Shown piece by piece: positions 26,162-44,807 of a stretch of 64,000 nt of DNA. Below the pieces are notes generated by a model. That model did no database searches. It saw only the letters and a list, made by a program, of their open reading frames with translations, and had not been told where the DNA came from. The DNA comes from Eubacteriales bacterium. Its GTDB lineage: Bacteria; Bacillota; Clostridia; Oscillospirales; JAAYXM01. The DNA lies in contig JAZSOS010000049.1 of assembly GCA_045537045.1 (NCBI GenBank), forward strand, positions 18,143-82,142. Direction: 5' to 3'. The translations under genes were made by a program, and so were the position numbers. Position 1 is the first letter of the stretch. Every line of letters begins with the position of its first letter.

Positions 26162-26172
26162 CCTTTTCTCCT

Positions 26173-26373: not shown

Positions 26374-26546
26374 GCCCTCCTTTCCAGTAATTTAAGGCTT
26401 TTGATTCCGTAAGAGATAAGTAACCACGCAACAGCGAATTGCCTGATTATTTCTCTCATAGTGATGCTTCCGCAGTCTGATGCTCCGGCTGTTCCGAATA
26501 AAAGCAGAACCCCTGCACCGATAAACAAATAATATAGAAACCTCAT
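26364..26546 (-). CDS. Small membrane protein (two predicted TM helices)
   Basis: MRFLYYLFIGAGVLLLFGTAG...FAVAWLLISYGI hydrophobic segments. Confidence 0.4.
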   Translation of the reverse strand: MRFLYYLFIGAGVLLLFGTAGASDCGSITMREIIRQFAVAWLLISYGIKSLKLLERRACR

Positions 26547-26608
26547 TATTAAACATCCTTTCTTTTGTATAGTGCGGTTTTTCCGCAGAACCGCAAAACT
26601 GCTTATAT

Positions 26609-26881: not shown

Positions 26882-26898
26882 ATTTAAATCTCCAATCT

Positions 26899-27483
26899 TT
26901 ATATTGCGGGTGCGACTGTTGCACCCCACTTATCAAAATATTTTTGCTTAATTTTCTTTTTTACATCATAGAATGCCTGACGCGAAAGATTGAACTCGCG
27001 CTCTATCTGTGTCGGTGTATATCCCTTTAAAAGTAGAGAAACGATTTCTGTTTGCTTTTTTGAAAGCTTGAGAGATAGAATCCGTTTAACCCTCTGCTTG
27101 TTTTCCTCTTCACGTTCCAGTTGGTCTTGTGCTTCTTCCAAATCTTCAAAAGGATTAACACCAATGTAATTATAAAGGCTTCTTTTTTCGTCTTGTTCTG
27201 CAGAATAGTCTGCATCAAGGCTGACGGTTTTCCGGGTTGCTTTTAGTTTTGCATAATTGCCAAGCTCTGAACGTATATCCCATTTGCAAATCGTTACTAC
27301 ACTATATTCTTGCAACTCCGGTTTTCTGTGCCATTTTTGAATGCCTTTTAAATAACCTATGGCTGCAATGTCGTAGAAATCCGAAACTGAATATCCATGC
27401 AAGCGCAAGAATGTATAAATATAATTATGATACTTTTCTGCATCAAGTCTTTCTGCATCTGTTAACGGCTGAAGTTTAAACAT
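26899..27483 (-). CDS. Sigma-70-family-like protein (region 2-like N-terminus, region 4 HTH C-terminus)
   Basis: C-terminal LSKKQTEIVSLLLKGYTPTQIEREFNLSRQAFYDVKKKI resembles a region 4/LuxR-type HTH. The N-terminus has the aromatic-rich pattern of region 2. Confidence 0.6.
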   Translation of the reverse strand: MFKLQPLTDAERLDAEKYHNYIYTFLRLHGYSVSDFYDIAAIGYLKGIQKWHRKPELQEYSVVTICKWDIRSELGNYAKLKATRKTVSLDADYSAEQDEKRSLYNYIGVNPFEDLEEAQDQLEREEENKQRVKRILSLKLSKKQTEIVSLLLKGYTPTQIEREFNLSRQAFYDVKKKIKQKYFDKWGATVAPAI

Positions 27484-28178: not shown

Positions 28179-28454
28179 TCACGCTATTGAAAATCTTTTC
28201 GATGTAGTTGTCTTTGTGAACTGTTCATATAAATCTGCGTATTTATTCTTAAATGCCGTGCTATCGAAACGAGTAGAAGTCACCTGCTTATATCGGACTT
28301 TATACTCATTTGTTGAAATCTCATCAACCTGCCGAAGCTCCATTTCTTTCTTGAGTTCGTCCTTAATGGCTTCTTGCTCGGCTTCAATCTCTTCTGCCCA
28401 TCTGGTAAGCTCTTTTAGCTTTCTTACCTTCTCATTAATACTTATTGTTGTCAT
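28179..28454 (-). CDS. Small coiled-coil protein common in Firmicutes mobile elements (ends ...TTSKRFSIA)
   Basis: The start was moved to the ATG at 28454 (MTTISINEK...), which has an AAAGGAG SD. The N-terminal 58 codons of the track ORF look non-coding (promoter region). Confidence 0.55.
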   Translation of the reverse strand: MTTISINEKVRKLKELTRWAEEIEAEQEAIKDELKKEMELRQVDEISTNEYKVRYKQVTSTRFDSTAFKNKYADLYEQFTKTTTSKRFSIA

Positions 28455-28621
28455 TTGTAACGACTCCTTTAATATTATTTGCTCTGGGGTGTTGCCCTTT
28501 GAGCTTGATATAAGTATACACCCATTTTGAGTGTATTTCAATTGACGGATTACACAAAGTACACACTTATTTCTTGTGTATATTGTACACTTGATATAAG
28601 TGTATGCAAAAATGGTGCTTA

Positions 28622-28650
28622 TTGACATAAAAAGAATTGTTTGATATAAT
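28622..28650 (+). promoter_or_regulatory. Consensus sigma-70 promoter (TTGACA-17-TATAAT)
   Basis: TTGACA at 28622..28627, a 17-nt spacer and TATAAT at 28645..28650, just upstream of the HTH gene. Confidence 0.7.
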
Positions 28651-29171: not shown

Positions 29172-29528
29172 TCATTCGGCAATCAACTTATCTACCAAAG
29201 AAGGATCTTGCTCAATTAGATAGATTAATTTGCGTGCCGTAGGGGTTGGATTAGATTTACCGCATTCCCAAGCTTCAACTGTGCGACAAGAAACACCAAG
29301 AACAGAAGCAAATGATTTTTGAGTCATAGAGAGTGAGATTCTAATTTTGGATACATTCACATCAGGAAGTGATTGTTTTCTTGCGAAAGTTTCTGCGCTT
29401 GCTTTGCCTTTTTCATATGCCAAAGCTTCATTAAGACCATCCATTATACCGGAAAAGAAATCAATGTTTTTGAAATTATCTTCTATTTCTTCCATTGATA
29501 AAGAAGACTTAAAGCGTAATTCTTGCAT
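29172..29528 (-). CDS. HTH (XRE-type) antitoxin, HigA/MqsA-like
   Basis: C-terminal HTH (LSMTQKSFASVLGVSCRTVEAWECGKSNPT). The ATG at 29528 has an AAGGAG SD and lies 4 nt after the toxin stop. Confidence 0.7.
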   Translation of the reverse strand: MQELRFKSSLSMEEIEDNFKNIDFFSGIMDGLNEALAYEKGKASAETFARKQSLPDVNVSKIRISLSMTQKSFASVLGVSCRTVEAWECGKSNPTPTARKLIYLIEQDPSLVDKLIAE

Positions 29529-29532
29529 ACTA

Positions 29533-29862
29533 TCACTCCTTTTTAATCTCATCTACTAAGGTCTTAATCGCTTTTTTCTGTTCTGAGGTCAAATCTTCTT
29601 GCACATTCTTAGGATATGCAAAAAGCAAATATAATTTCTCTTTTTCAAAAACATCAAGATAAATAACTCTGCCACCGCCACTTTTGCCTTTAGCATCAAG
29701 CTGTATGCGTAATTTTCGCGCACCGCCACTACCTTGTATGACATCTCCTCTTTGTGGATTTTCGAGCAGTATGTTTTCAAGTGTTTTTAAATCATCGTCT
29801 GTTAATCCCATTGCTTTCCAACATCTATGAAAAGGCGCAGTAAAAATAAATTCTCTTGTCAT
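29533..29862 (-). CDS. RelE/ParE-superfamily (HigB/Gp49-like) toxin
   Basis: 109-aa basic protein. The ...GGARKLRIQLDAKGKSGGGRVIYLDVFEKEKLYLLFAYPKN... pattern is typical of this toxin family, and the toxin-first gene order is HigBA-like. Confidence 0.7.
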   Translation of the reverse strand: MTREFIFTAPFHRCWKAMGLTDDDLKTLENILLENPQRGDVIQGSGGARKLRIQLDAKGKSGGGRVIYLDVFEKEKLYLLFAYPKNVQEDLTSEQKKAIKTLVDEIKKE

Positions 29863-29997: not shown

Positions 29998-30037
29998 AGT
30001 GTACACTATTGACATAATGTACACTTTTTGTTATAAT
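29998..30037 (+). promoter_or_regulatory. Consensus promoter (TTGACA-17-TATAAT) flanked and overlapped by two AGTGTACACT-type palindromes
   Basis: AGTGTACACT at 29998..30007, TTGACA at 30009..30014, AATGTACACT at 30016..30025 and TATAAT at 30032..30037. Confidence 0.7.
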
Positions 30038-30052
30038 GGAGGTGCAAAGGAG

Positions 30053-30487
30053 ATGAATGATATGTTAACTATGAACGCTACAGATGTACGCAAGAATTGG
30101 AGCGAAGTATCGGATAGCGTAATCAGAGAACGTCCGAGCTTTATTAAACGCACTCGTGACTATATGATGCTTTCCAGTCTTGAATTGATGAATGACTTGT
30201 TAGCTGCATATACTTTTACCGCTGAGAGATTTACAGAATCAGACGGTAGTATTACTTTGTCCTTAAATGAGATTGACTTAGTTGAGAACGCAGAGACCGA
30301 AGCTAAAGCAAAAGAGCAGCTTGCGAATGCCATTCTTGAATATGCTTATGATTACTATAGTGAGTATAAGGTTTGGTCAACTGCACCGAATAGAAAGGCT
30401 CATATTCCATATGTATTTAAGGCGATTATACTCGACGATGTTAAGCAGATTGGAGAGTGTATTCAATGCCGAGATGGAAAGAACTAA
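30053..30487 (+). CDS. Putative antitoxin (Phd/YefM-like N-terminus) of the second TA pair
   Basis: The N-terminus ...MNATDVRKNWSEVSDSVIRERPSFIKR... resembles Phd/YefM-type antitoxins. It overlaps the downstream toxin-like gene by 22 nt. The start is ambiguous (30053 or 30062). Confidence 0.5.
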   Translation: MNDMLTMNATDVRKNWSEVSDSVIRERPSFIKRTRDYMMLSSLELMNDLLAAYTFTAERFTESDGSITLSLNEIDLVENAETEAKAKEQLANAILEYAYDYYSEYKVWSTAPNRKAHIPYVFKAIILDDVKQIGECIQCRDGKN

Positions 30488-30684
30488 AGAGATTTTGCGA
30501 GCGGGACGGCTGGGAACTGTATAAAGACACAGACCACTACTTTTATCGCAAGCGGGATGAAGATGGAAACATCCGCATGACAAAGGTATCAAAAGGCAGT
30601 GGAGAGATACATACTCATATGTGGAGAGAAATACTAAAGAAGCAGTTACAAGTAAGCGAAGAGTATTTCAACCGGATGATATAA
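30466..30684 (+). CDS. HicA/YcfA-like toxin
   Basis: MPRWKELKRFCERDGWELYKDTDHYFYRK...VSKGSGEIHTHMWREILKKQL matches the small YcfA/HicA pattern. GGAGAG SD 8 nt upstream. Confidence 0.5.
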   Translation: MPRWKELKRFCERDGWELYKDTDHYFYRKRDEDGNIRMTKVSKGSGEIHTHMWREILKKQLQVSEEYFNRMI

Positions 30685-30742
30685 TAAAATGACGATAACC
30701 GTTATCTGTAATGGGTAACGGTTATTTTTGTTGAAAAAGTTA

Positions 30743-30771
30743 TTGACACAAATTCAATCATATGATACACT
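30743..30771 (+). promoter_or_regulatory. Promoter candidate (TTGACA-17-TACACT with a TG extension)
   Basis: TTGACA at 30743..30748, a TGA extension and TACACT at 30766..30771. Confidence 0.5.
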
Positions 30772-30805
30772 GTTCATAAATTTAAAAATGAACGAGGTGG
30801 GATTT

Positions 30806-31354
30806 GTGACATTTCATGATTATATTAAAAATCATACAAAATACGGGCGCGGGAATATAGATTTAAAAAAATGCTGTGCTTACAAGATCGACAAAATTTT
30901 AAGAGAAGAAAATTTCCCTAATCGATGCATCAGATTTAAACTTTACGGAAAAACTTTTGGTTTCCGAGCAGATTATAATCTCGATTTAGACCACGATATT
31001 CAAGCAAGCGCTGACAATTACATAGATATCTTTGATGAACTAAAACCTATGGAGGCAAGGAATCTTCTATGTTTTATGTACTTTGAATTCCGGGACAAGT
31101 ATATTGAAATGTCCGAAGAGATAGAGAGACTTAAACAAAGTATAAGCGATCTCGAAGATGTTCAAAAACAGTTAAATGACATAAAAGAGAAGCGTTCACA
31201 TGCGGGAAGACCTCCTATATCAGTTAAAAAAAGACAAAGGGTTTTAGAGTTGAGAGAGCAGAAAATGTCTTTTTCTCAAATCAGTAAAGAATTGAAAATA
31301 AGTAGAGGTTCTGTTCATAAAATAATAAATGAACAAAATGGCGGAAAAGCTTGA
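30806..31354 (+). CDS. Hypothetical protein with a C-terminal resolvase-type HTH
   Basis: GRPPISVKKRQRVLELREQKMSFSQISKELKISRGSVHKII resembles the HTH_7/Hin DNA-binding domain with no catalytic domain. The GTG at 30806 follows a GAGGTGG SD, and the promoter lies inside the track ORF. Confidence 0.55.
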   Translation: MTFHDYIKNHTKYGRGNIDLKKCCAYKIDKILREENFPNRCIRFKLYGKTFGFRADYNLDLDHDIQASADNYIDIFDELKPMEARNLLCFMYFEFRDKYIEMSEEIERLKQSISDLEDVQKQLNDIKEKRSHAGRPPISVKKRQRVLELREQKMSFSQISKELKISRGSVHKIINEQNGGKA

Positions 31355-31498
31355 TTTTGCATATTACAAAAAGCGTTTTTATGTTATCTTGGGGATATAA
31401 CACCAATAACAGCAAATAAATATAGATTTTACACAATAATGCAGTTATTTATCAAGATGTACTCGAATTTTTATTTTCTGTATTTTAGGCTAAATATA

Positions 31499-31524
31499 CG
31501 ATATATATTAGTACCTATATATCG
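31499..31524. promoter_or_regulatory. 9-bp inverted repeat (CGATATATA-N8-TATATATCG) just upstream of the RHH gene
   Basis: Perfect arms at 31499..31507 and 31516..31524, 17 nt before the ATG at 31541. Confidence 0.45.
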
Positions 31525-31540
31525 CGCGAAAGGAAAAACT

Positions 31541-32005
31541 ATGTCAATATCTGAAGCACAAAAACGAGCAAGTAAAAAGTATTTAAAAACACATAATAAA
31601 CAGATAAAGCTATCTATGCCAATACATGAAGCAAAAGCTCTTGAACGCTATTGCAAGAAGCATAATGTAACAAAGATGGGATTGATACGCAGTCTTATAC
31701 GAGCTGAAATAGAAAGAGACTTCGGGAGAGAACATCGGGATTTCGAGCTTTGGATTTCGGAAAAATGGCACGAGGCAAAAGCAGAGGGGGTTGTTACACA
31801 GGAGCAAGAAAATGAGTTGAGCAATAACAACCGTAGGAGAGAAGACATCGAAAATGCCATTCCTTATTTGCATACACTAATGAGAGCGGGATATATTTCA
31901 CTTGATGAAGACGGATATTTCAAGACTACGAGTATTCGCGATACTCCGGAAAGATTTGAAGAAAAACATAAGGCATCGTCAGGAATGTTTTTTGTTTTGA
32001 GATGA
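31541..32005 (+). CDS. Ribbon-helix-helix (CopG/MetJ-like) domain protein
   Basis: MSISEAQKRASKKYLKTHNKQIKLSMPIHEAKALERYCKKHNVTKMGLIRSLI fits a beta-strand plus two-helix RHH layout. The ATG at 31541 has an AAAGGAAAA SD. The track ORF starts at 31439. Confidence 0.55.
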   Translation: MSISEAQKRASKKYLKTHNKQIKLSMPIHEAKALERYCKKHNVTKMGLIRSLIRAEIERDFGREHRDFELWISEKWHEAKAEGVVTQEQENELSNNNRRREDIENAIPYLHTLMRAGYISLDEDGYFKTTSIRDTPERFEEKHKASSGMFFVLR

Positions 32006-32211
32006 TGTATCAAACAGATCAAAGTCATGATTAATTTCATGGCTTTGTTTTTTTGTCCATTTTTCAAAACCACGATGAAATCATAATTTCAACAACAAAA
32101 CTCCACGCAAATCAAAACTGATGAAAATTCGCTCAAAAATTTTTTCAAACAGAGAATATAAGAGTAGGCAATAAATTTTTGCTGAAATTTATAAGATGTG
32201 GAGTTTGATTA

Positions 32212-32832
32212 ATGAAGACAAAAGAAATAAAGACAAATGCAATTATCATCAACGAGGCAATCAATAAAGTAAAAAAAGAATTTAAGAGCGGGATTAATGT
32301 TTCTGAATTGGATATGTCCGAAATTGAGACAGTATTGGAACGTGTCAATGCGATACATAAACCGAAAGAAAGAGAGCGGGCGCTTAGAACCTTTGACAGA
32401 GCATTAGACAGATTTGCAGAGTACATAGCGAAACATTCAACAGATGAAGGTTTCTATACAGAGAAAACAGATAAAAACGATGTAGAATCTGAAGCTCAGT
32501 TAAAAGCGGGGCTGTACGACAAGAGGCGACCTGTTAACCAAACAGTATTTTCGGCTTTCTTATGCAATGGTGAAGACGGAAGCGAGTTTTACACATTTGA
32601 ACTTGGAGAAGATGCAGGGCATCGCATTGAAAATTACACTGAGTTGCAAATCATGCTTGATGAAGCTTTTTCTCTTCTAAAAGAGGATGTAAAGCTTGTT
32701 GGTAGGTTGTACGAGAATGGATACACAATAGAAGAAAGTGCGAGGATTTCAGGTCTAACTCCTAAGCAAGTAAGAGGACGAAGAGATAAGTATTTAAATA
32801 TGAGGAAAGATATTTTACAAAAAGTTTTATAA
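32212..32832 (+). CDS. Second sigma-like / region-4 HTH regulator
   Basis: C-terminal VKLVGRLYENGYTIEESARISGLTPKQVRGRRDKYLNMRKDI resembles sigma-70 region 4. Confidence 0.5.
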   Translation: MKTKEIKTNAIIINEAINKVKKEFKSGINVSELDMSEIETVLERVNAIHKPKERERALRTFDRALDRFAEYIAKHSTDEGFYTEKTDKNDVESEAQLKAGLYDKRRPVNQTVFSAFLCNGEDGSEFYTFELGEDAGHRIENYTELQIMLDEAFSLLKEDVKLVGRLYENGYTIEESARISGLTPKQVRGRRDKYLNMRKDILQKVL

Positions 32833-33182: not shown

Positions 33183-33359
33183 ATGTTAAAAGATCGAGTA
33201 AAGCACTACATAGAGATAACAGGCATTCCTAAATCAGTGTTTTGCAAAAGGTTAGGTTTTACTGTTCAGTCACTCTATTTATGGCTGAAAGATGAGCGAC
33301 GGTTTTCTCTTGAGACCGAAGAACGCATAAAGAAATATCTCGCGCAGTTTAACTTCTAA
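33183..33359 (+). CDS. Small HTH protein (58 aa, below the ORF-track cutoff)
   Basis: The ATG at 33183 is preceded by a GAAAGGAGG SD. It translates to MLKDRVKHYIEITGIPKSVFCKRLGFTVQSLYLWLKDERRFSLETEERIKKYLAQFNF. Confidence 0.65.
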   Translation: MLKDRVKHYIEITGIPKSVFCKRLGFTVQSLYLWLKDERRFSLETEERIKKYLAQFNF

Positions 33360-33426: not shown

Positions 33427-34689
33427 ATGAAACAAAGGAGAGGATTTTATATAACAAACACAAACGAAAAGATTATAACGGTTATTGATAGTCTAATGGG
33501 TTCAGGGAAGACTCAGTGGAGCATCCAGTACATCAACGCAAATCAATACGATAATATCTTATACATAACACCGTTCCTAAAAGAAGTGGAACGCATAATC
33601 ACATCGACCAATAGAAACTTCAAACAGCCAATTAACAAAGGCGAAGGTAAGCTTCAAAGCATTAATGACCTATTAGAGGGACAAGAAGACATAGCCTGTA
33701 CACACGAGCTTTTCAAGCACCTGAACGAAGAAAGCAAACAACGCATTAAAGAAGGTCATTATACATTGATACTTGATGAAGTGCTTAATGTCATTGAGCC
33801 GTATGACGATGTTAAACAGAACGATATGGATTTATTAAAAAACAGTGGATGCGTTACTGTTGATGATGAGGGGTACATTGTTTGGAACGAGGATAAGAAA
33901 GATTATGATACAAAATATAATGAAATAAGAGACTTAGCGCAGAATAGAAGCTTGATTTACATTAATCAAAAGTTGCTCTTATGGAAATATCCACCTGACA
34001 TATTCACCTTGTTTGATAAGATATATGTTCTTACATATTTATTTGAAGCAAGTATACTGAAACATTATTTTGATTTATATGGATTCCAGTATGAGAAAAA
34101 GAGTGTAATTAAACAGGATACTTGTTACGCAATAGTTGACTATTTTGTGCCTGATACAACACAGTTCAAGGAGAGAGTAAATATTTACGAAGGCATTCTC
34201 AATGATAACTTCAATCAGAAATTAACATCACTATCAAAAACATGGTTCAATGCCAAGACCAATACAAAAACTCAAATGAAAATCAAAAATAATATATATA
34301 ACTATTTTCAAAATATAGTAAAAGCTCCTGCAAGCTCTATACTATGGACTACATTTAAAGCAGCTAAGTCGAAATTAAAAGGAAAAGGATATTCGAGCAA
34401 GTTCTTAGCCTGTAATTGTAGAGCAACTAACGAATACGACGAAGCATATAATCTCGCTTATTGCGTTAATATATATCTTCATCCGGCAGTGACTCAATTC
34501 TTTTATCAAAAAAACATCAATGTTGATGAAGACTTATTTGCTCTCTCAGAGATGCTTCAGTTTGTTTGGCGATCCGCAATTCGCAAAGGCGAAGAGATAA
34601 ACATATACATACCATCAATAAGAATGAGAAATTTACTGATAAACTGGTTAAATATGTCGTTGAATAACCAAGCGTTAAAGGTAGCTTAG
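33427..34689 (+). CDS. P-loop NTPase, SF2 helicase-like
   Basis: Walker A (SLMGSGKTQ), Walker B/DExx (TLILDEV) and a motif VI-like segment (QFVWRSAIRKG). 420 aa. There is no SD of its own. See the upstream mini-ORF. Confidence 0.6.
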   Translation: MKQRRGFYITNTNEKIITVIDSLMGSGKTQWSIQYINANQYDNILYITPFLKEVERIITSTNRNFKQPINKGEGKLQSINDLLEGQEDIACTHELFKHLNEESKQRIKEGHYTLILDEVLNVIEPYDDVKQNDMDLLKNSGCVTVDDEGYIVWNEDKKDYDTKYNEIRDLAQNRSLIYINQKLLLWKYPPDIFTLFDKIYVLTYLFEASILKHYFDLYGFQYEKKSVIKQDTCYAIVDYFVPDTTQFKERVNIYEGILNDNFNQKLTSLSKTWFNAKTNTKTQMKIKNNIYNYFQNIVKAPASSILWTTFKAAKSKLKGKGYSSKFLACNCRATNEYDEAYNLAYCVNIYLHPAVTQFFYQKNINVDEDLFALSEMLQFVWRSAIRKGEEINIYIPSIRMRNLLINWLNMSLNNQALKVA

Positions 34690-34990
34690 GAAATCGACCT
34701 TCCTAAACTTTTCAAAAAACATAGTAATCATGCGGGTTTCGAGAAATTTTCTTTAAAGAGAGGAGGTATTAAAAATATGATGAAAAATTAGATATAAATA
34801 TTCACATTAGCCTTACGGCATTACACCAATCGGTTGTTTCACAACCTCATGGTGCTGTCAGCTTTTACTGGCGTAAAATCCGACAGGATTAAATCTTTAA
34901 TCTCATTTATGGGCTTTGAGTTGTATGGGTCAACAGCTCAAGTACCGGGACTGAGTAAAAATAAATTAACAAAGGAGTAGGGAAAGACAA

Positions 34991-35674
34991 TTGAGAACGA
35001 AAGGAAGTAAAAACAAGGGATTAACAGCAGAAGAATACAAAGAACTTTTTGAGAAGTACAAGGGCGATGTGTTGTTTGAAAATGAAGAAGCGAGACAAAT
35101 GGTAAAGCATAAGCCGTACTTATTTATTACAGATAAGGGCAGAGTTCTCTCGGTAAAAAAAGACCGAATAAGAGTACGAAAACAAACACAGAGAGTGCAA
35201 AAGTATAGTAATGATACAAAAGGAAGCAACGAGAGAAAGCATTGTGTTTGTATCTTAATAGATGGCAAACCAAAAGTCTATTATACACACCTACTGGTCG
35301 CAGAATATTTTTCCGATAAGATTTCTTCATTTGTTACTGGAGATGAAGATAAAACTATCATTCATCACATTAAGGGATATGATCCAACATCAGATAGTAA
35401 TAATAATGTGAATAACCTCATCCGAATGAATCCACGTACACACCTGTTGATGCACAGTATGGGGGTTAAGTCAACAGAGGAAGAAAGGCAGAAATGGAGA
35501 GAAAGAATATATAGAGTGATAGGAGATAAGCACTGTATGTTTTATAAATCTCCTGATGGGCAGTATTCAGGGGTTCTACCTTTGACAGACAAAGAGTTTG
35601 AATTATTATCAAACTCCGAAGAATATAAGAACAAATTTTTAGAAAATCACTTAGAAAAGAAAGGAATTATTTAA
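34991..35674 (+). CDS. HNH homing-type endonuclease (NUMOD4-like N-terminus)
   Basis: YLFITDKGRVLS (NUMOD4-like) and IIHHIKG...NNVNNLIRMNPRTHLLMH (H-N-H). TTG start with an AAAGGAG SD. Confidence 0.7.
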   Translation: MRTKGSKNKGLTAEEYKELFEKYKGDVLFENEEARQMVKHKPYLFITDKGRVLSVKKDRIRVRKQTQRVQKYSNDTKGSNERKHCVCILIDGKPKVYYTHLLVAEYFSDKISSFVTGDEDKTIIHHIKGYDPTSDSNNNVNNLIRMNPRTHLLMHSMGVKSTEEERQKWRERIYRVIGDKHCMFYKSPDGQYSGVLPLTDKEFELLSNSEEYKNKFLENHLEKKGII

Positions 35675-35676
35675 TT

Positions 35677-35907
35677 ATGATTATGAATAACGAAAGCAAA
35701 AACAAGAATCCATTTATCCAACTCGGCTGGATTGTAATGCCTGAAGATATAGATAATCCGGATGGAAATATTGATTATTATGGGCTGTATATGAGAACTG
35801 ATAAGTGGGTGCGCTATCCATCAAATAATGTGCAGCAAAGCGAAAGCACTGAGACAAAGCGAATGTCTTTCGGAGAGAAACTAAAATGGGTATTCAGCAA
35901 CAAATAG
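35677..35907 (+). CDS. Hypothetical protein (76 aa)
   Basis: ORF tightly packed after the HNH gene. No motif recognised. Confidence 0.4.
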   Translation: MIMNNESKNKNPFIQLGWIVMPEDIDNPDGNIDYYGLYMRTDKWVRYPSNNVQQSESTETKRMSFGEKLKWVFSNK

Positions 35908-36335
35908 ATAAAATCATTCGGAAGCACGACTTAAGATTAAAAGTCATAGCCGATAAGGTTATGACAGAGACAAAAGACGAGTTGATTAGAAGACTTGACG
36001 AAGATTTCTATAAAAGCTACTCGCCTTTGGATTACGAGCGCTCGTATGATCTGATATCTGCTGTTGACGGTCGTATAACCAAGAACGGCGTAGCAGACTA
36101 TACCATCGAAGTCTACTTCGACGAGACAAAAATTCGTCCGAGAAGTCGAGCGGGCTTTAGTGCTCATATGGGATTTGATGGCAAACCGTTTGTGCATGGG
36201 ATTGTTGAGGCGATAGAACACGGCTTTAAAAGCAAATATAACCCGCGGCACGGCGAAGAGTTTAAGATAATATCAAAAACGCAAAAAGATGCAGAAAAAA
36301 TAGCTAATAAGCTATTAAAAAGTTATATAAAATGA
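35886..36335 (+). CDS. Hypothetical protein (149 aa), possibly a virion-module remnant
   Basis: ORF upstream of the tape-measure gene. No confident family assignment. Confidence 0.45.
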   Translation: MGIQQQIDKIIRKHDLRLKVIADKVMTETKDELIRRLDEDFYKSYSPLDYERSYDLISAVDGRITKNGVADYTIEVYFDETKIRPRSRAGFSAHMGFDGKPFVHGIVEAIEHGFKSKYNPRHGEEFKIISKTQKDAEKIANKLLKSYIK

Positions 36336-36354
36336 TTTTTAGGAGGAAAACAAT

Positions 36355-36807
36355 ATGGATAAGATTAATTACAAAGGAACAAGCCTTACAGAGCTTATAA
36401 AGCTCTCACTCATTGGTGCTGAGAATTGCACAGAGAAAAACGAAGACGGCATTACGGTTATAAATTCACTGAAGAAGCAGCTTTACATAAAGACAGTTGC
36501 AGTAGGTCGACTTCTTAAGGCTGTTGACATTAAGGAAGATGAGATGATGTCTATTTCTGATTTTGATAATTGCAATATTTCAGAAAGCAATGTAGGCACC
36601 GGGAAGAATCGCTTCATTGAGGATGTAAAGGCATTCAAGGCTATGCTTGATGATGAGATTCGCAACGTTATTACCCGTGAGAATGATATTATGACTCGCA
36701 TTAATGAGGCTATCAAAACAGAAATTACACCTGAAAATATTGCGAAACTCAACGAGAGCAAAGACGAGCTGATAGAAAAGCTTGATGAAATGAAGACCGA
36801 AGCATAA
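36355..36807 (+). CDS. Hypothetical acidic protein (150 aa), in the position of a tail-assembly chaperone
   Basis: AGGAGG SD. It lies immediately upstream of the tape-measure gene. The assignment is by position only. Confidence 0.45.
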   Translation: MDKINYKGTSLTELIKLSLIGAENCTEKNEDGITVINSLKKQLYIKTVAVGRLLKAVDIKEDEMMSISDFDNCNISESNVGTGKNRFIEDVKAFKAMLDDEIRNVITRENDIMTRINEAIKTEITPENIAKLNESKDELIEKLDEMKTEA

Positions 36808-36821
36808 GAAAGGAGTGAGCC

Positions 36822-39800
36822 ATGAGCGATGATGTAATTAGGGTCAGGTTACAAATTGACCAAAACACAGCACAATCAGTTGAGGGACAAGTCAGGAATC
36901 TTGTCTCTCGACTTAATAACCAACGAATTACGCTGAGTTTCAATTCAAGCGCGATAAATAATTGTATATCGCAGTTGGAACGACTTGAACAGACCGCGCG
37001 AAGAATTCAGAATGCAAATATTAATATTAACGCGAATCTTAATGAGACTCAGCAGACATATAGATTGGAGACTGAGCGTATCAGGGCATTAAGTGAACAA
37101 CAGCGGGTAGCACAGCAAGTTGCTGTTGAGCGGGAGCGAACTCTCCGATCTGAGAACAACGCAATAAGCGCATTAACTAGAGAGAACAGAACGTTAACCG
37201 TTAATCGCAACATTACCGAAGAGGTTACAAACAATGTAAGGCACACTCACGAGCATATCAGGAGAGCGGGCGATGCGACTAATGATTTTGTGGCGCATTT
37301 AGGGCGCGGATTACAGCATTTAATCCAGTACCGGATTTTCAGTGAACTTTTAAATAAATTCTCTGAAGGTTTCCAAGAGCTTAAATCAACGGATGATGCT
37401 ATGGTGTCATTAAAAAAGGTCACTGATGAAACTGATGAAAAATACAATCAATTTCTTGATTCAGCAAGAGAAAAAGCAGATAGACTTGCCCGTTCTGTAT
37501 CAAGTGTTGTAGACCAAACTGCACGATGGGCAAAACTCGGATTTAACGTAGAGGAAGCAGCTATACTTTCCGAAACATCTTCTATCTACGCTAATGTTGG
37601 CGAAGTCTCAGATGAAACCGCCGTATCAGATATTGTTACGGCAATGAAAGCATTTAATATTGAAGCAAAAGACAGTATTCAGATTATAGATAAACTCAAC
37701 AATCTCGGCAATAAATTTGCAGTCAGCTCAGCAGGTTTGGGCGAGGGATTGTCAAAATCCGCTTCTGCTCTTAAGTTTGCAGGTAACGACATAAACCAAA
37801 CTTTGGCAATGATTACAGGTGGTACTGAAATAGTTCAGGATGCTTCAATAATGGGCAATGCCCTCAAGGTTTTAAGTATGCGTATCAGAGGAATGAAGGG
37901 CGAGCTTGAAGAACTCGGCGAGGAGTATGAAAATGTCGAGTCAATTTCTAAAATCCAAACGCAAATCCTCAACCTCACACATGGTGCGGTAAATATATTT
38001 GATGATAACGGTAACTTTAGAAGCACATATAACATTTTAGAGGATATCGCCGAAGTATGGGAGCGCATTTCACAGACAGACCAAGCGGCACTTCTCGAAA
38101 CTATAGCTGGGAAGCAAAGAGGTAATCAGATATCAGCATTAATTCAGTCGTTTCAGTCAGGACAAGCACAAAAAGCTCTTTCTGATGCTATCAACTCGAG
38201 CGGGAGCGCTCTTAAAGAACAGGAACGCTGGTTAGACAGCATCGAGGCGAAGCAACAGAAAGTATTCACCGCATGGGCTAACTACATTGCAGGGATGTCT
38301 AACGTCGAGACTATTAAAGGATCATTAGACCTGTTAGCATCTGCTATAGACGCGCTTAATGCGCCTGTAGGTCGGCTAATTAGCCAAATAATTCTTGTTA
38401 ATACGGCTCTCGCGTTAACCGGGAGATTATGGAATGGTATTCGCGCACGTTCAATCATAGCTGATACTCTCGCTGTCGGTGTCGCTGAAGGCAGTCTCGG
38501 CACTGCAATAGGATTGGTTACTGAGCAGTTAGGTAGACAAGCATTAGCTTGGATTGCTTCTCCGCTTGGAATGGCAACAGTGGCGGCAGTTGGTATATAT
38601 GCTATCGTCAAAACGGTCGATTCCCTCACCATATCGCTTGAAGAATCCCGCGAAGCACTTTCTAACTTAAAGTCGGAATATTCAAGTATAAAATCCGAAT
38701 TGCAGGGATTGAATGACGAGCTTCAAACCACCCGACAGAGACTTGCCGAGCTTGAAAGTAAGGACAAGCTTACATTTACTGAGAACGAGGAACTCGAAAC
38801 TCTCCGCAAGCAGAATAATGAACTTGAGAGACAAAATGATTTGCTTGAAATGCAAGAAAAAATCAAAGCAAAAGAAGTTAACGATAAGTTTGTTGAAACA
38901 ATGGAATCTGATGCTGGCAAGATAGAATATGCTTCTGGTAATACAAAAAGAAAAGAGACTCGTGGTGGATATGCATACGAAGTAAATGTAACAGACATTA
39001 CCGAAAAAGAGTATGCCTTTAACCAAATAAAAGAATTGTCTAAGCTGTATGCCGAAAGAGAAAAAGCGACAACAGAAGAACAAATAAAGGCAATTAATAA
39101 AAGAATAGAGACAGTCAACAAGTATATTCAAGACAAAAATAAAGAATGGTCAGAAGATGCCGAAGGTATAGAATACATTCAAAATCCAACCACAGAAGAT
39201 GATAAAAAGGTTAATGAATGGATTGACTTTATAAACGACTTCCAAGACAAAATGGCTATTGCTATGGGTGGTACAGATGCTAAAACAAATGCATTTAACC
39301 GAATAGTCGACAACTGGCAGTTTGATGAAGCATTGCAAGGACTCCAAGACTTAGGTAAGCAAGGCAAGGTTACAGCAGAAATGCTCAAAGATCCTGCGTA
39401 TGGTGACTTTATTCAAAAGCTCATTGATATAGGCTTTATATCCGGAAGAACCGACTATGATTTACAACAGGTGGCTAACGCCTTCAATGGAGTTGGACAA
39501 TCAGCTCAGGATGCGAGAAAAGAGCTTACTAAGTATGCAGAGGCGAAAAACGGTGTAATTGCCAAAAAATTAAACACTGAAGATGATATACGCCAGCTCA
39601 TAAATTTAGCGAACGCAGCGGGTGCAAGTGCGGATGCCTTAAACCGTCTTGAGATTATGCGGCAAAACCTACTCCCGGGAGCAAGCAAAGATGCAAAGCG
39701 TCGTGGTAACTATATCAAGCGCACAATTGAAAATGGTAGCTTTAATTTTGGTTTTATTCCGCTGAAGGCAGAAGATTACATAGACAATAGCGGTGGTAGT

Positions 39801-41738
39801 TCATCCGGTGACGATTCTTCCAAATCTTCTGACAAAGACAAGCCCGATAAAGCAGACCCGACAGATGCAATAATCAATCGCATAGCCGCTCCTGTCGAAG
39901 CACTTGAAAGACAGGGCGAAATCATTGATAATCAGCTTGATATGGTCGACGCCGAAAAAGAGTATGACAAGTATGTTGAACTCACAAATAAAGCTCTCGA
40001 TAATAGGCTCAAGACCATTGAAGCAAGCAAGACTGCTCAAAACGAACTCAGTAAAGAAGCACAAAAGATACGAGATAAGTATAAAGGTATAGATGTTGAC
40101 TCTTTCTTCCATGCTAACGGCGAATTTACAGAAGCATACAATAGTTATCATGATTCATTCGGCTCTAAGGCAAAACAAGAAGCCTTTGCAGACGATATGA
40201 AGATGATACAGGAGTTCAAAAAAGAATGGTTTGAGTATTACGATGACATTATGGGTCTTGAAAAGGAAGTCTTTGATTTACGCAAAGATTTACAAGATGC
40301 ACACTATGACCACCTTTCAAGTCTTATCGACCAACTCGAACGCCATGCAGACCTTCGTGAGAAACAAGCCGAGGACGACAAAGAACATTACGACTACCTT
40401 ATAGATAAAGAGCAAGCCCTTCTCGACATGAAGAAAGCACAGTTTGGTCTTGAAAATAAACTTTTGTCTGCAAGAAGAGAAGCAGAGAAAGCTCTTGCAA
40501 CATCTAAGATAGGTTCTGAATATCTCGATGAAGAAACCCGCAATCTTGTCTACAACGAAGACGATTATAAGTTAGAGATGGACAAGATAAAGGAAATCTC
40601 TGGCGAGGTAGATGGACTTACCGAAGAATATATATCCAAACTTAATAAGTTGGGTGAAGAGGAGATATATAAAGCCGAGGAAATCACGGCACAGTATGAG
40701 CGTAGACTTGCCCTCAAAGAGAAAGAACTTGAAATTGTACAGGCTGAGATTGACCTTCAGAAGAAGCAAGATGCGCTTAATAATGTTCTTGCAGAAAAGA
40801 ATATCCGACAAATAGTTGACGGCAAATGGGTATGGACACACGACACAGACCAGCTCCGTCAGGCGACTGAGGATTTAGCAGATGCGAAAGCTCAGGTAGA
40901 ACAGCTTGAACGCGAGAAAACGCAGTTGGAGTATACCAACAGCTTAAAGGCTCGAATTGGTCAGTGGCAACTTGAACAAGAAGCTATTGACAATGCAATG
41001 GAAGACCTTCATGATAAGATTGAAGAGTTTTCTACTAAGGTAGAACTCCTCAAAGACCCGCTTGATAATTTTGCAGATATTGTAAACGAGCTGACGGCTG
41101 AATTAGGTAGCATTAACATTGAAAGCTATACAAGCAGTAGTTCATCAAATGGTTCAGGTTCTTCATCCGGTTCTTCTTCAAGCTCCGGCAGATGGGGTAG
41201 CGTAGACCCAAATGCTAATGTTGGTTCTGTTGTCCAGCAGATGATGAACAACTCTACCAAATGGCACGTTTCAGACAGCGCTACCAAGGCAGAGCTTCAC
41301 GCGACAAACCAAAAGCTTGCGGCTTCAATTGGCGCGGATTATAACCCGTCAAACGGCAAATATTATCAGAATGGCAAACCGCTTTATGACAGTGGCGGTG
41401 TTCTTAAAGGACTTGGCGGAATAAAGGCAACCGAGAAAGATGAGATTGTTCTTTCTCCGAGCCTTACCGAAAAGATACTTACTCCCGAGAACAACCTTCT
41501 GTTTGATAGGTTTGCGAATAACCTTGAAACTATTTTTGATATGAATACGCTTAGACCATTGGCAGATATGTTCAATATCCCGAAACCAAATGTGGACTTC
41601 TCTAAGAATATTGCAGACAGAGCTGTAACTAATAATTACAACATGAACGGCAATGTGAATATCACGGAAGCTGATGACATTGAAGACACACTTAGAAGAC
41701 TGCTCCACACAGTACAGGCAAAATCCCTCAATAACTAA
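36822..41738 (+). CDS. Phage tail tape-measure protein (TP901-family core)
   Basis: 1638 aa. The core ...ARWAKLGFNVEEAAILSETSSIYANVGEVSD...KFAVSSAGLGEGLSKSASALKFAG...GNALKVLSMRIRG... matches my memory of the TP901 TMP core. It is followed by hydrophobic helices and more than 800 aa of coiled coil. Confidence 0.85.
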   Translation: MSDDVIRVRLQIDQNTAQSVEGQVRNLVSRLNNQRITLSFNSSAINNCISQLERLEQTARRIQNANININANLNETQQTYRLETERIRALSEQQRVAQQVAVERERTLRSENNAISALTRENRTLTVNRNITEEVTNNVRHTHEHIRRAGDATNDFVAHLGRGLQHLIQYRIFSELLNKFSEGFQELKSTDDAMVSLKKVTDETDEKYNQFLDSAREKADRLARSVSSVVDQTARWAKLGFNVEEAAILSETSSIYANVGEVSDETAVSDIVTAMKAFNIEAKDSIQIIDKLNNLGNKFAVSSAGLGEGLSKSASALKFAGNDINQTLAMITGGTEIVQDASIMGNALKVLSMRIRGMKGELEELGEEYENVESISKIQTQILNLTHGAVNIFDDNGNFRSTYNILEDIAEVWERISQTDQAALLETIAGKQRGNQISALIQSFQSGQAQKALSDAINSSGSALKEQERWLDSIEAKQQKVFTAWANYIAGMSNVETIKGSLDLLASAIDALNAPVGRLISQIILVNTALALTGRLWNGIRARSIIADTLAVGVAEGSLGTAIGLVTEQLGRQALAWIASPLGMATVAAVGIYAIVKTVDSLTISLEESREALSNLKSEYSSIKSELQGLNDELQTTRQRLAELESKDKLTFTENEELETLRKQNNELERQNDLLEMQEKIKAKEVNDKFVETMESDAGKIEYASGNTKRKETRGGYAYEVNVTDITEKEYAFNQIKELSKLYAEREKATTEEQIKAINKRIETVNKYIQDKNKEWSEDAEGIEYIQNPTTEDDKKVNEWIDFINDFQDKMAIAMGGTDAKTNAFNRIVDNWQFDEALQGLQDLGKQGKVTAEMLKDPAYGDFIQKLIDIGFISGRTDYDLQQVANAFNGVGQSAQDARKELTKYAEAKNGVIAKKLNTEDDIRQLINLANAAGASADALNRLEIMRQNLLPGASKDAKRRGNYIKRTIENGSFNFGFIPLKAEDYIDNSGGSSSGDDSSKSSDKDKPDKADPTDAIINRIAAPVEALERQGEIIDNQLDMVDAEKEYDKYVELTNKALDNRLKTIEASKTAQNELSKEAQKIRDKYKGIDVDSFFHANGEFTEAYNSYHDSFGSKAKQEAFADDMKMIQEFKKEWFEYYDDIMGLEKEVFDLRKDLQDAHYDHLSSLIDQLERHADLREKQAEDDKEHYDYLIDKEQALLDMKKAQFGLENKLLSARREAEKALATSKIGSEYLDEETRNLVYNEDDYKLEMDKIKEISGEVDGLTEEYISKLNKLGEEEIYKAEEITAQYERRLALKEKELEIVQAEIDLQKKQDALNNVLAEKNIRQIVDGKWVWTHDTDQLRQATEDLADAKAQVEQLEREKTQLEYTNSLKARIGQWQLEQEAIDNAMEDLHDKIEEFSTKVELLKDPLDNFADIVNELTAELGSINIESYTSSSSSNGSGSSSGSSSSSGRWGSVDPNANVGSVVQQMMNNSTKWHVSDSATKAELHATNQKLAASIGADYNPSNGKYYQNGKPLYDSGGVLKGLGGIKATEKDEIVLSPSLTEKILTPENNLLFDRFANNLETIFDMNTLRPLADMFNIPKPNVDFSKNIADRAVTNNYNMNGNVNITEADDIEDTLRRLLHTVQAKSLNN

Positions 41739-41804
41739 AACACGAGCGGGCGGTTTAATCGTGCCGTCCGCTCACCCAAAAAACGAAAAAGGAGAAATGA
41801 ATTA

Positions 41805-42089
41805 TTGACGAATAATATAATAAATTATAATCCGCGAAAGATTTTAGTGTTTCCGTCGGTTGGAATTTCATATAATAACGACGGTGATGCTTGTATGAAC
41901 GAGACTAATCAAAACTCACAGTACATAAGAGAAAATTCCGTTATTAACATCGAAAGATTTTTCACAACTAATAACGTAAATATAAATGACATATTAAAAA
42001 TGTATGTGGTAGAAAATTTGGACAAAAGATGTTACAATAATAATACCAATACAACTGTTGTGTCCCACACAAAGGAGGTAAATGAATGA
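41805..42089 (+). CDS. Hypothetical Asn-rich protein (94 aa) overlapping the recombinase start
   Basis: TTG start 10 nt after a GGAG SD. ATGA overlap with the recombinase gene. Confidence 0.4.
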   Translation: MTNNIINYNPRKILVFPSVGISYNNDGDACMNETNQNSQYIRENSVINIERFFTTNNVNINDILKMYVVENLDKRCYNNNTNTTVVSHTKEVNE

Positions 42090-43735
42090 GGGAACAACAG
42101 GTAAAAAAAGTTTATAGGACTGCTCTATATCTAAGACTGTCAAAAGATGATGAAGGAGCTGGGGAAAGCTCAAGTATTACAACTCAAAGAAGCATTTTAC
42201 AAGAGTATGCAGACAAACATGGATTGGTAGTTGTTGACGAGTATTCGGATGACGGGTTCTCCGGCACAAACTATGACCGACCAGAATTTAAACGCATGAT
42301 TGAGGATATTGAAAACGGTAAGATAAACTGTGTCCTTACAAAAGACCTATCGCGGTTAGGGAGAAACAGTGCACGAACAACAGACTTACTGGATGAATAT
42401 TTCCCTGCACACAGAGTACGTTACATATCCGTTATTGATGGTTATGATTCCTTTAATCTGACAAGCGGAACATCTATGACAGCATCGTTTATGACAGTCA
42501 TGAATGAGATGTATGCGAGAGATATAAGCAACAAGATACGTACTGCGTTTAACGCAAAAATGGAACGTGGCGAATGCATAGCGAGCTTTGCACCATATGG
42601 TTATAAGAAAGATGTGGAGCATGGCAATAAAAACCGATTAGTTATCGACTACCAAGTTGCGCATGTTGTAAAAGAAATTTTTCAAATGGCAGCAGACGGA
42701 AAAGCACCAAGCGAGATTGCAAAACACTTGAATAATAAATGTGTTGCGACTCCGGCAGTGTACCGTTGTATGTCTCGACCATATCTTAATGTTGATAACT
42801 ATACACAGCGCAAGGAATGGACTTCTGCTATGGTTTGTAAGATGCTGAAAAACGAGGTGTATTTAGGAAAGACCCTGCAAGGCAAGACTAACAAAATATC
42901 GTTCAAAAGCAAAGTAACACAAGCAAGACCAAGAAGTGAATGGATAGTGATTGAGAACACGCATGAGCCATTAATCACAGAGGAGATGTTCAACATTGTC
43001 CGAAATCGAAGTGTATCACGGCGTTGTTTGCCGACGAAAGGATTTACAAATGTTTTTGCCGGTATAGCCAAGTGTGCTGATTGCGGAAGAAATATGAGTC
43101 TTGCACCATCGAGGAAAAAGGGTACGACATATAATTTGTGTTGTGGCGGTTATAAAGCTTATGATTCCACCGAATGCAGTAATCACTTTATAAGTTATGA
43201 TTTGCTCTATGATGCCGTTCTTCAAGAGTTGCAAGGTTGGTTGGCGTTATCTCAAGATGACAAAACCAAAATAGCAAAGGAACTTGAGCAAGAGAAAATG
43301 CACCGGACAGAAAACACAGGAGCAAATCAAACAATTGCTAACATGAAAAAGAGAGTTGACGAGCTTTCTTTTTTGATGAAAAAGCTGTTTGAAAACTACA
43401 CATTTAACCGAATAAATGAAGCGATGTATGAAAAACTGTCTGCTGAATACAGTAATGAATTAACAGACCTTGAAAAAGCCATCGAAGATATCAGAGGCAA
43501 TGTTAAAGTCGAACAAGACAGAAAAGACAGATATAATAATTTCTTTTCTCTTTTGGAAGAAGTAACCGATGTCAAAGAACTGACAAAGCCACTGCTTCAA
43601 AAGTTAATTGAGCGGATAGAGATAGAGCAGGGTGAATACTACAAAGAGGAAAACGGAAAAAGGCTGAAAAGGCAGACTGTACGCATATATTATCGCTTTA
43701 TCGGATGTGTGGGAGAACAAGAAAAAACACCCTAA
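42086..43735 (+). CDS. Large serine recombinase (resolvase domain, recombinase domain, zinc ribbon, coiled coil, DUF4368-like tail)
   Basis: ALYLRLSKDDE...SITTQR catalytic region, LTKDLSRLGRN, Cys cluster CADCGRNMS...LCCGGY and C-terminal ...IERIEIEQGEYY...VRIYYRFIG. The stop lies 10 bp from the attR core. Confidence 0.9.
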   Translation: MREQQVKKVYRTALYLRLSKDDEGAGESSSITTQRSILQEYADKHGLVVVDEYSDDGFSGTNYDRPEFKRMIEDIENGKINCVLTKDLSRLGRNSARTTDLLDEYFPAHRVRYISVIDGYDSFNLTSGTSMTASFMTVMNEMYARDISNKIRTAFNAKMERGECIASFAPYGYKKDVEHGNKNRLVIDYQVAHVVKEIFQMAADGKAPSEIAKHLNNKCVATPAVYRCMSRPYLNVDNYTQRKEWTSAMVCKMLKNEVYLGKTLQGKTNKISFKSKVTQARPRSEWIVIENTHEPLITEEMFNIVRNRSVSRRCLPTKGFTNVFAGIAKCADCGRNMSLAPSRKKGTTYNLCCGGYKAYDSTECSNHFISYDLLYDAVLQELQGWLALSQDDKTKIAKELEQEKMHRTENTGANQTIANMKKRVDELSFLMKKLFENYTFNRINEAMYEKLSAEYSNELTDLEKAIEDIRGNVKVEQDRKDRYNNFFSLLEEVTDVKELTKPLLQKLIERIEIEQGEYYKEENGKRLKRQTVRIYYRFIGCVGEQEKTP

Positions 43736-43745
43736 ATTTCCATCT

Positions 43746-43750
43746 ACACG
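43746..43750. other. attR core (ACACG)
   Basis: Identical to 23377..23381. feoB-like coding sequence resumes exactly here. Confidence 0.7.
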
Positions 43751-44807
43751 TTGTCAGCCCCTGCTTTCCGCAGGCACCGCATTTTTTAAATATGCGGTCT
43801 AAGTTAAATGCAACGCGAGGGAGATATCCGAGGTCTTCCAAAAGTGTGAATAAAGGAAAGAATATTGCCATGGGCGGGAGCATTACGGAAACTACCCACG
43901 AAAGCGTGCGGTATACGCCGAAGACGAGCGCTTCGCACACCGGTGTTGGCAAGTGCAGGAAAGAAAGCAGACGGAAAATATCATCCTCAAGACCAAGCAG
44001 AAAACCGGACAAAAGTGAAGACGGGTAATTTGCACCCTCAATTGTCAGCCAGAATATTCCGAGAAGCATCAGGAGCATTATTGGAAATCCCAAAAGCTTG
44101 CTTGTAAGGATTTTATCTGCAAATCGTTCGCGGTACGAATAGCTACCAGAGTCCGGTTTCTTTACCGAAAGGCTGTAAATACGTTCGGCTTCACACGTAA
44201 GCTCTTCTGCCGAGTGGAAAGGAGTACGCTTGTGCGGCAAAGGGTCTGAAATAGCGGATTCTATGGTATCGAGAAGAGCATCAAGTCCCTTGCCGTCACG
44301 AGCGCGGGTTGCAACGACGGGAAGCGAAAGCTCCCGGGAGAGAGCGTCAAGGTCAATTTCTATTTTCTTCTTTTTTGCCTCGTCCATAAGATTTACGCAT
44401 ACAATTACGTTTTCGGCAATTTCTGCAGTTTGCAGAACAAGAATAAGATTGCGCTCGAGGCACGTTGCATCACAGACTACGACAACGGCATCGGAGAGAC
44501 CGGAATACAAGAAATCACGCGCCACCTCTTCCTCGGCAGAGGAAGGAGAGAGCGAGTATGTACCCGGAATATCGATGAGTACATAGCCGTGTCCGTTTCT
44601 TTCACAGAAGCCTTGCGCATTTGTCACGGTTTTGCCAGGCCAGTTACCGGTGTGCTGGCGCAGTCCCGTCAGCTCGTTAAAAACCGTGCTTTTGCCGACG
44701 TATGGGTTTCCGGCAAGTGCAATTATGCGGTCGTTCGGGTTTCGTTTTTTTATAGTAAGCGTACTGTCCGCGGCACCTTTGCCCACGGAGTCACGGGTAA
44801 GTCCCAA
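43746..44807 (-). pseudogene. feoB: feoB 5' fragment (G domain, helical domain and first membrane segments)
   Basis: G1 motif GNPYVGKST, then DIPGTYSL. The FeoB-like sequence ends ...RIFKKCGACGKQGLTTC. The ORF then reads 13 element-derived codons to a stop at 43698. Confidence 0.85.

Follow-up and report, generated by a model that had tools for sequence, protein, structure and literature searches.

All PLEs (elements resembling phage-inducible chromosomal islands) of Vibrio encode a tape-measure protein together with a chaperone, to which PLE11 adds a baseplate hub (Nature 2026, PMC12987554). The virions of PLEs contain the tape measure of the PLE and exclude that of the helper phage ICP1, and the formation of such chimeric tails has been shown experimentally (PMC12987554). 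The chimeric tails let PLE11 deploy an inhibitor (Rta) of the helper tape measure (PMC12987554). The EPIPs of Mycolicibacterium aichiense combine a serine integrase with a tape-measure gene and an altered tail length (bioRxiv, December 2025, PMC12822802). Putative tape-measure genes have also been noted in phage-inducible chromosomal islands that form capsids, or cf-PICIs (Extended Data Fig. 10 of PMC12987554). Here, an integrative element of 20.4 kb with a tape-measure gene is described from a Clostridial genome (Eubacteriales bacterium, assembly GCA_045537045.1, contig JAZSOS010000049.1). It occupies positions 23376-43750 of the window, i.e., of the whole stretch of 64,000 nucleotides that was analyzed, and splits the iron-transporter gene feoB. 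The element belongs to a rare, conserved family in gut and rumen-type Clostridia with a fixed cassette of genes next to the integrase, and it may be a satellite of large SPbeta-like siphophages.

The element resembles the PLEs in several respects. It is a chromosomal island of roughly the same size, it encodes its own tape measure and genes at the chaperone position, and it has no capsid or lysis genes. This likeness is one of gene content; no library match pointed to PLE proteins, and no direct sequence comparison with PLEs was made. PLEs also integrate by means of a large serine recombinase. However, PLEs reside in Vibrio and use the lytic myovirus ICP1 as a helper, whereas the host here belongs to Bacillota and a temperate SPbeta-like siphophage is presumed to act as the helper. 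Neither a baseplate-hub gene nor RepA, a capsid-remodelling gene, or an Rta-like inhibitor could be recognized in the element, and the partners of the tape measure in its cassette are a YomN-family protein and a novel acidic open reading frame (ORF). The EPIPs differ by their further genes, for a major capsid protein, a scaffold, a small terminase, and a head-tail adaptor and stopper, and no counterpart of these was found in the element. The cf-PICIs are defined by capsid, portal, protease, connectors, HNH, and small terminase genes, of which the element has only the HNH gene. The SPbeta-like siphophages, which include SPbeta/phi3T, pCD1602_4 of Clostridioides difficile, and uncultured Clostridial phages of 100-200 kb, are the source of homologous parts (YonV, the YomN family, and the tape-measure core). 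SPbeta integrates via the large serine recombinase SprA. Phages of this type have 100-135 kb and carry heads, the YomU tail tube, a baseplate, and lysis genes, whereas the element, with 20 kb, has no more than two or three genes in common with such a genome in its complete form.

The borders of the element can be defined precisely. The 6-bp hexamer TACACG is common to both element-feoB junctions, and the removal of positions 23382-43750 in silico yields a single uninterrupted FeoB ORF of 633 aa, the N-terminus of which matches FeoB GTPase domains (1e-40). The insertion of the 20.4-kb element was therefore precise. The gene at the right end of the element encodes a large serine recombinase in which all four domains are present (Table 1). 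These domains, the short crossover core, and the precise reconstitution of the target characterize an integrative element of the large serine recombinase type, and it was this enzyme that inserted the element precisely into feoB. The clean attachment (att) sites and the apparently intact recombinase described in the initial annotation of the window were thus borne out. The GC content is 0.33-0.43 within the element (approximately 23.4-43.8 kb) and mostly 0.44-0.53 in the host flanks. Two more 1-kb bins of low GC content are located in the window, at 5001-6000 (0.40) and 15001-16000 (0.37), within host sequence of 0.45-0.50.

The rightward half of the element was initially read as an SF2-like NTPase, an HNH endonuclease, three small ORFs, a TP901-type tape-measure protein of 1638 aa, a small ORF, and the recombinase, and this order, with the gene sizes, holds. 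The tape-measure assignment is equally sound. The match to PF10145 spans the full profile of 201 positions, and six further tape-measure PHROGs match in addition to the full-length family match given in Table 1; with both this core and the full-length match, the protein belongs to the tape-measure family. It has a mass of 183 kDa and a hydrophobic segment at aa 574-596. At 23-31% identity, its N-terminal third matches large-siphophage tape measures, including those of Brevibacillus Sundance and Enterocloster CB473P1 as well as CwlP of SPbeta, and identities of 50-70% are reached with tape measures of uncultured phages, many of them on contigs of 100-200 kb. The N-terminal 190 residues are present only in the element family; for the C-terminal 240 residues, matches beyond the family are weak. 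Members of the family share a conserved, long C-terminal part. Upstream of the tape-measure gene lies a YomN-family gene, as in phages, and downstream only the 94-aa ORF and the recombinase gene.

The kinship of the 149-aa ORF with YomN is barely detected by direct library scans. A profile built from five element copies detected homologues upstream of the tape-measure gene in approximately 20 phage loci, including those of CB473P1 and, as YomN itself, SPbeta; the expanded profile matched 50 ORFs. In most SPbeta-like phage loci, a distance of 0-100 nt separates the match from the tape-measure gene downstream of it, and the slot directly upstream of this gene is the classical position of a tail assembly chaperone. 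Among 19 family members, phrog_7299 (“virion structural protein”) is the match of five and “tail completion or Neck1” that of one. The Pfam family YomN was called on the copies of two relatives described below (L075 and L076) and weakly on that of a third (L053). No match was obtained when the YomN-like profile was compared with the sequences of the PDB. Owing to this YomN-family neighbor, the tape measure is not an orphan and is not the only virion-related gene. The initial statement that the tape measure occurs without other virion, lysis, or conjugation genes is therefore correct with regard to head, packaging, lysis, and conjugation genes but not with regard to the tail module. For the acidic ORF, which separates the YomN-family gene from the tape-measure gene, only ten proteins out of 5.8 billion are close homologues, and a set of 1.84 billion contains 12 cluster representatives. 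A comparison of its profile with PDB sequences gave no match, and nothing was found when it was aligned by hhalign with YomL and YomO of SPbeta. It is a candidate second chaperone. A literature search on YonV, YomN, and other structural proteins of SPbeta turned up nothing useful.

The functions that would define a known class of mobile element were sought by scanning 28 ORFs against Pfam and PHROGs. No match was found to a capsid, portal, protease, terminase, tail tube, baseplate, holin, or endolysin, nor to a relaxase, coupling protein, or VirB4. Only three ORFs of the element exceed 250 aa, i.e., the tape measure, the SF2 helicase, and the recombinase, and since all of them are accounted for, none is left that would be large enough to conceal a portal or a large terminase. 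Because the defining genes were tested and are absent, the element is neither a prophage nor an integrative and conjugative element (ICE), for which a relaxase, a type IV coupling protein, and a VirB4-type ATPase are diagnostic, although an element mobilizable by an origin of transfer alone is conceivable; the initial annotation was right to place it outside both groups. For the same reason, it is not a phage-inducible chromosomal island (PICI) of the Staphylococcus aureus pathogenicity island (SaPI) kind, as it has an integrase and regulators with no primase or Rep, small terminase, or iterons found, and it is not a cf-PICI.

The short architecture is not confined to this genome. A genome scan with the tape measure returned two full-length relatives, L002 and L003, with 72-73% identity. 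The upstream synteny is the same as in the window (YonV at 94-96% identity, HNH at 47%, and the small ORFs), and the tape-measure gene is followed by the gene of a 392-aa tyrosine integrase and then by ordinary host genes. The L002 type (L002, L063-L067) was found on at least 23 contigs from several samples, always as the same short element; an HTH_17 Xis precedes the tyrosine integrase, and the insertion adjoins a glucosamine-6-phosphate isomerase gene. More distant relatives have tape measures of 30-43% identity. In L053, a YomN-like ORF and the acidic ORF precede the tape measure, and a 104-aa ORF, the gene of a tyrosine integrase, and then host genes come after it. In L075, the order is YomN, the acidic ORF, a tape measure of 2607 aa, Xis, a tyrosine integrase, and a host gene. 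The L075 tape measure (L075:6411-14234) bears a C-terminal NlpC/P60 peptidoglycan hydrolase domain, and a wall hydrolase domain is typical of functional, injecting tape measures in Gram-positive systems. The same cassette is present in L055, L073, and L076, the contigs of which end before any integrase. In L055, a 663-aa ORF that is cut by the contig end (L055:15454-17442) follows the tape measure and a 94-aa ORF; it was considered as a serine recombinase and rejected, as it is not a recombinase and has no PHROG match.

All relatives that cover the region have the tape measure in common and, upstream of it, the 58-aa ORF, the YomN-like ORF, and the acidic ORF. The recurrent order is the 58-aa ORF, then at some distance the YomN-like ORF, the acidic 150-aa ORF, the tape measure, a small ORF or Xis, and the integrase. 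The backbone of the family consists of regulators, toxin-antitoxin pairs, a resolvase, and usually a YonV-type SF2 helicase as in SPbeta. The integrases are of the tyrosine or the serine type and are used at different host sites, which points to repeated horizontal movement. Every relative with a known downstream flank is a short form, and no long prophage form with head or lysis genes was found among the relatives. The search of related genomes for a long or a short form, which had been suggested initially, thus gave several short-form lineages and no long form. The idea of a deleted prophage as a unique derivative is not supported by this result, as the short architecture recurs in divergent lineages and is under purifying selection.

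The evidence for selection comes from the comparison of the window with L002 and L003. The dN/dS ratio of the tape measure is 0.21-0.23, with 0.05-0.2 in most segments, and the values are 0.10-0.20 for the YomN-like ORF, 0.19-0.23 for the acidic ORF, and 0.06-0.08 for YonV. Together with the intact ORFs, these low ratios indicate that the cassette is under purifying selection and is being maintained. Along its length, the tape measure is 60-100% identical to those of L002 and L003, except for aa ~181-477, where the identity falls to 23-41%. This region has sharp boundaries and corresponds to the PF10145 core, which is 56-70% identical to phage tape measures. The core, which is closer to phages than to the relatives of the element, has been replaced by recombination with a phage. 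One of the closest donors of the core domain, P0028, is located among YomX_N, YomW, YomV_2nd, and YomU_Tube genes (Pfam), and the phage in question is SPbeta-like. The tape measure is thus a mosaic, the core of which was exchanged with tape measures of SPbeta-like phages.

The helicase encoded upstream of the YomN-family gene has a similar affinity. Over 95% of its length, the 420-aa protein shares 42-44% identity with YonV of SPbeta, phi3T, and related phages and with that of a 132-kb SPbeta-like phage-plasmid of C. difficile. An AlphaFold2 (AF2) model based on 36 homologues (pLDDT 71.5) displays a fold with two RecA domains. The structures closest to this model are XPD, Hel308, and DEAD-box SF2 helicases, as well as uncharacterized phage proteins; a sequence search of the PDB with YonV gave no match.

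Taken together, these observations are best explained by a satellite that depends on large SPbeta-like siphophages and uses its own tape measure for the construction of chimeric tails, a reading that seems about equally likely to prove right or wrong. It is favored by a real tape measure, phage-derived partners, a recurrent short form, selection, the core swap, the absence of head, packaging, lysis, and conjugation genes, and the precedent of PLEs and EPIPs. Once the helper is induced or infects the cell, the element would excise and replicate, with the YonV-like helicase as a candidate replication factor. The element would then express its cassette, and the tail-tube and tip proteins of the helper would assemble around the element tape measure, with the YomN-like and acidic proteins as its putative chaperones or partners. 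Capsids, the packaging machinery, lysis, and the rest of the tail would be supplied by the helper. A private tape measure would give a satellite-specific tail length, which may be estimated at ~246 nm at 0.15 nm per residue, and it could let the satellite escape, or impose, interference directed at the helper tape measure, as in Vibrio PLE11. Among the three readings offered in the initial annotation, that of a satellite which supplies its own tape measure is the best supported; the accompanying suggestion that such tail hijacking would be of a new kind no longer holds in view of the literature of 2025-2026, as PLEs and EPIPs precede it (PMC12987554, PMC12822802).

A number of points weigh against the satellite model. 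Excision, replication, packaging, and the dependence on a helper are all putative in it. The Pfam and PHROGs scans recognized no small terminase, primase, or Rep, and a repeat search recognized no iterons, cos-like repeats, or pac/cos site. A genome of 20 kb in a capsid built for 100-135 kb would require the packaging of multimers. No helper prophage is present within the 64-kb window. When IMG/VR was scanned with the tape measure, all contigs returned were those of large phages with the core domain in common, and none was a relative of the element type. The scans with YonV returned nothing in IMG/VR and one short fragment in JGI metagenome contigs; in neither collection did the scans reveal a close relative of the element. 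It is by gene position and isoelectric point (pI) that the YomN-like and acidic proteins are candidate chaperones; the AF2 single-sequence model of the YomN-like protein (pLDDT 44) is unusable, and the acidic ORF has no homologue outside the family and none in the phage loci examined.

Other explanations have to be considered. It is unlikely, though conceivable, that the element is a defense or interference island in which the tape measure and its partners poison the assembly of SPbeta-like tails as a dominant-negative core, while the element itself is unpackaged and is passed on vertically or by other routes. Interference with tail assembly by mobile elements is established (Tai systems, PMC11364771; PLE11 Rta against the ICP1 tape measure). 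The three toxin-antitoxin-like modules of the element, the element-specific tape-measure N-terminus and acidic ORF, and the exchange of the core with phage tape measures, which would fit an arms race, are all in keeping with such a role. However, a full-length tape-measure gene of 5 kb exceeds the needs of a decoy, and purifying selection extends over the whole protein, including the C-terminal part. The wall-hydrolase domain of the L075 relative is likewise difficult to reconcile with a decoy, PADLOC found no known defense protein, and the repeated horizontal movement indicated by integrase classes and sites is left unexplained. Since interference and self-transfer coexist in PLEs, this explanation is in part not a rival of the satellite model.

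It is highly improbable that the element is the remnant of a decayed SPbeta-like prophage that kept its integrase, with the cassette as functionless left-over cargo. YonV, YomN, and the tape measure all have homologues in SPbeta-like phages, genes for replication and packaging were not recognized, and the family is rare. Nevertheless, the same short gene order is found in several lineages with tape measures of 30-75% identity, tyrosine or serine integrases, and different sites; no long form was found, and all cassette ORFs are intact with dN/dS ratios of 0.05-0.25. Moreover, the complete SPbeta-like genome pCD1602_4 shares only YonV and the YomN-like gene with the element, most genes of which have no counterpart there. 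Just as improbable is an integrative element that is moved by conjugation in trans (with an origin of transfer, oriT, only) or by generalized transduction and has co-opted a tape-measure-like protein for a use outside the virion, e.g., in the envelope: virion genes beyond the cassette were not found, the tape measure has a membrane-type hydrophobic segment, and related YonV-backbone elements hold quite different cargo in the same slot, but no relaxase, coupling protein, or VirB4 was found either, the tape measure always travels with its YomN-family neighbor from real phage tail modules, its core is 56-70% identical to genuine phage tape measures, and the NlpC/P60 domain of L075 is that of an injecting tape measure.

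Table 1. Coordinates of the features of the element in the window
Feature	Position	Strand	Evidence or remark
attL crossover core TACACG	23376-23381		borders C-terminal half of feoB (22537-23433, minus strand)
224-aa ORF, extreme left end	23729-24403	-	no family match
Small serine resolvase/invertase	24469-25032	-	Resolvase 1.8e-34; HTH_49
Five ORFs (95, 233, 66, 60, 106 aa)	25189-26929	-	no assigned function; kept at 86-98% identity in L002/L063-type element
Sigma-like/HTH protein, 194 aa	26899-27483	-	phrog_37022 2.7e-12; phrog_1740 sigma factor 1.6e-4
DnaJ-domain protein, 168 aa	27546-28052	-	PF00226 1.4e-7; phrog_15863 3.4e-44
ORF with phrog_6244/Gp157-like similarity	28179-28628	-	conserved part is last 93 aa
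HTH/MqsA-like antitoxin	29172-29552	-	paired with RelE-like toxin
RelE-like toxin	29533-29862	-	
PHD_like antitoxin and HicA-like toxin	29999-30684	+	PF12910 1.9e-30 (antitoxin)
Three putative regulators	30728-32832	+	208-aa HTH; 188-aa ribbon-helix-helix/RepB_RCR_reg-like; 206-aa sigma-like
58-aa small ORF	33183-33359	+	weak similarity to HTH regulators
YonV-like SF2 helicase, 420 aa	33427-34689	+	phrog_2467 8.6e-77; weak ResIII; Pfam YonV_C
HNH endonuclease, 227 aa	34991-35674	+	phrog_59 6.8e-7
76-aa ORF	35677-35907	+	weakly conserved in L002/L003
YomN-family protein, 149 aa, pI 9.1	35886-36335	+	phage tail-module gene
Acidic 150-aa ORF, pI 4.75	36355-36807	+	directly upstream of tape-measure gene; element-family-specific
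Tape-measure protein, 1638 aa	36822-41738	+	PF10145 1e-22 over aa 216-430; phrog_4211 2.7e-84
94-aa ORF between tape measure and recombinase	41805-42089	+	not conserved in relatives
Large serine recombinase, 549 aa	42086-43735	+	Pfam: Resolvase, Recombinase, Zn_ribbon_recom, DUF4368
attR crossover core TACACG	43745-43750		borders N-terminal half of feoB (43698-44807, minus strand)

The remaining genes of the element are listed in Table 1. The HNH protein is 47% identical to the L002/L003 copy (L002:8197-8844), next to a YonV-like gene at 94-96%. It is probably a free-standing homing endonuclease, and its divergence fits the turnover of mobile genes. A different and larger HNH is present at the same position in L055. 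The 94-aa ORF is possibly a directionality factor, as the relatives with a tyrosine integrase have the HTH_17 Xis at that position.

In the left arm, the resolvase gene adjoins the 224-aa ORF, and a resolvase is also kept at the left end of L063 and in L061. Where the window has the toxin-antitoxin and regulator block, the L002/L063-type element instead encodes a PBECR4-domain protein (L063:3793-4401) and a protein of 247 aa in which an RNA polymerase alpha C-terminal domain is present (L063:4837-5580). The 206-aa sigma-like protein has a homologue in L055 (3e-22). Three near-consensus sigma-70 promoters (TTGACA, 17 nt, TATAAT) are located at 28620-28650, 30007-30037, and 30741-30771 of the window. 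In the called ORFs 29999-30487 and 30728-31354, such a promoter falls within the 5' end, and the true starts of these two ORFs are therefore probably further downstream. An assignment of the 58-aa ORF to DUF5659 was rejected, as it has no Pfam support and DUF5659 ORFs are separate genes in the relatives. An Enterococcus “phage” record of 25.9 kb (OR846621) was also tried as a packaged relative and discarded, as it has the DnaJ protein in common and nothing else. The Rfam and tRNA scans were empty.

The YonV-type helicases form a much larger group, with more than 2,200 homologues. The contexts of one of them, P0188 (L057-L060), are small integrative elements that carry a YonV-like helicase with a terminal Xis and a tyrosine integrase. 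In some of such YonV-backbone elements, the slot before the integrase holds a YonO-like RNA polymerase of 1062-1087 aa with an RNA-dependent RNA polymerase (RdRP) fold, along with a tubulin homologue and a radical SAM protein; in others, its cargo is a ClpX-like ATPase, accompanied by a 960-aa ORF. These contexts suggest a broader YonV-backbone family with exchangeable phage-derived modules. In L061, a tape measure of 1691 aa is encoded far upstream of YonV. A literature search on satellites of SPbeta-like phages turned up none. It is conceivable, if somewhat doubtful, that gut and rumen Clostridia harbor a large, unrecognized class of satellites of SPbeta-like phages, in which the YonV backbone is combined with interchangeable, helper-derived “hijack cassettes” next to the integrase. 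The tape-measure cassette would then represent a strategy convergent with that of PLEs, and the core exchange with helpers would be a signature of an arms race over the tail core.

If these elements are indeed satellites, the substitution of the tail core would be a recurrent strategy that was reached independently in Bacillota against large SPbeta-type temperate siphophages, and it would not be peculiar to Vibrio PLEs. Such elements are probably overlooked by virus and ICE finders. The gene order of the YomN-like ORF, the acidic 150-aa ORF, the tape measure, and the integrase provides a compact marker by which they may be found in gut metagenomes. The family would also offer a natural system for determining the regions of a tape measure that need to match the helper, with a core that is swappable and an N-terminus that is private to the family.

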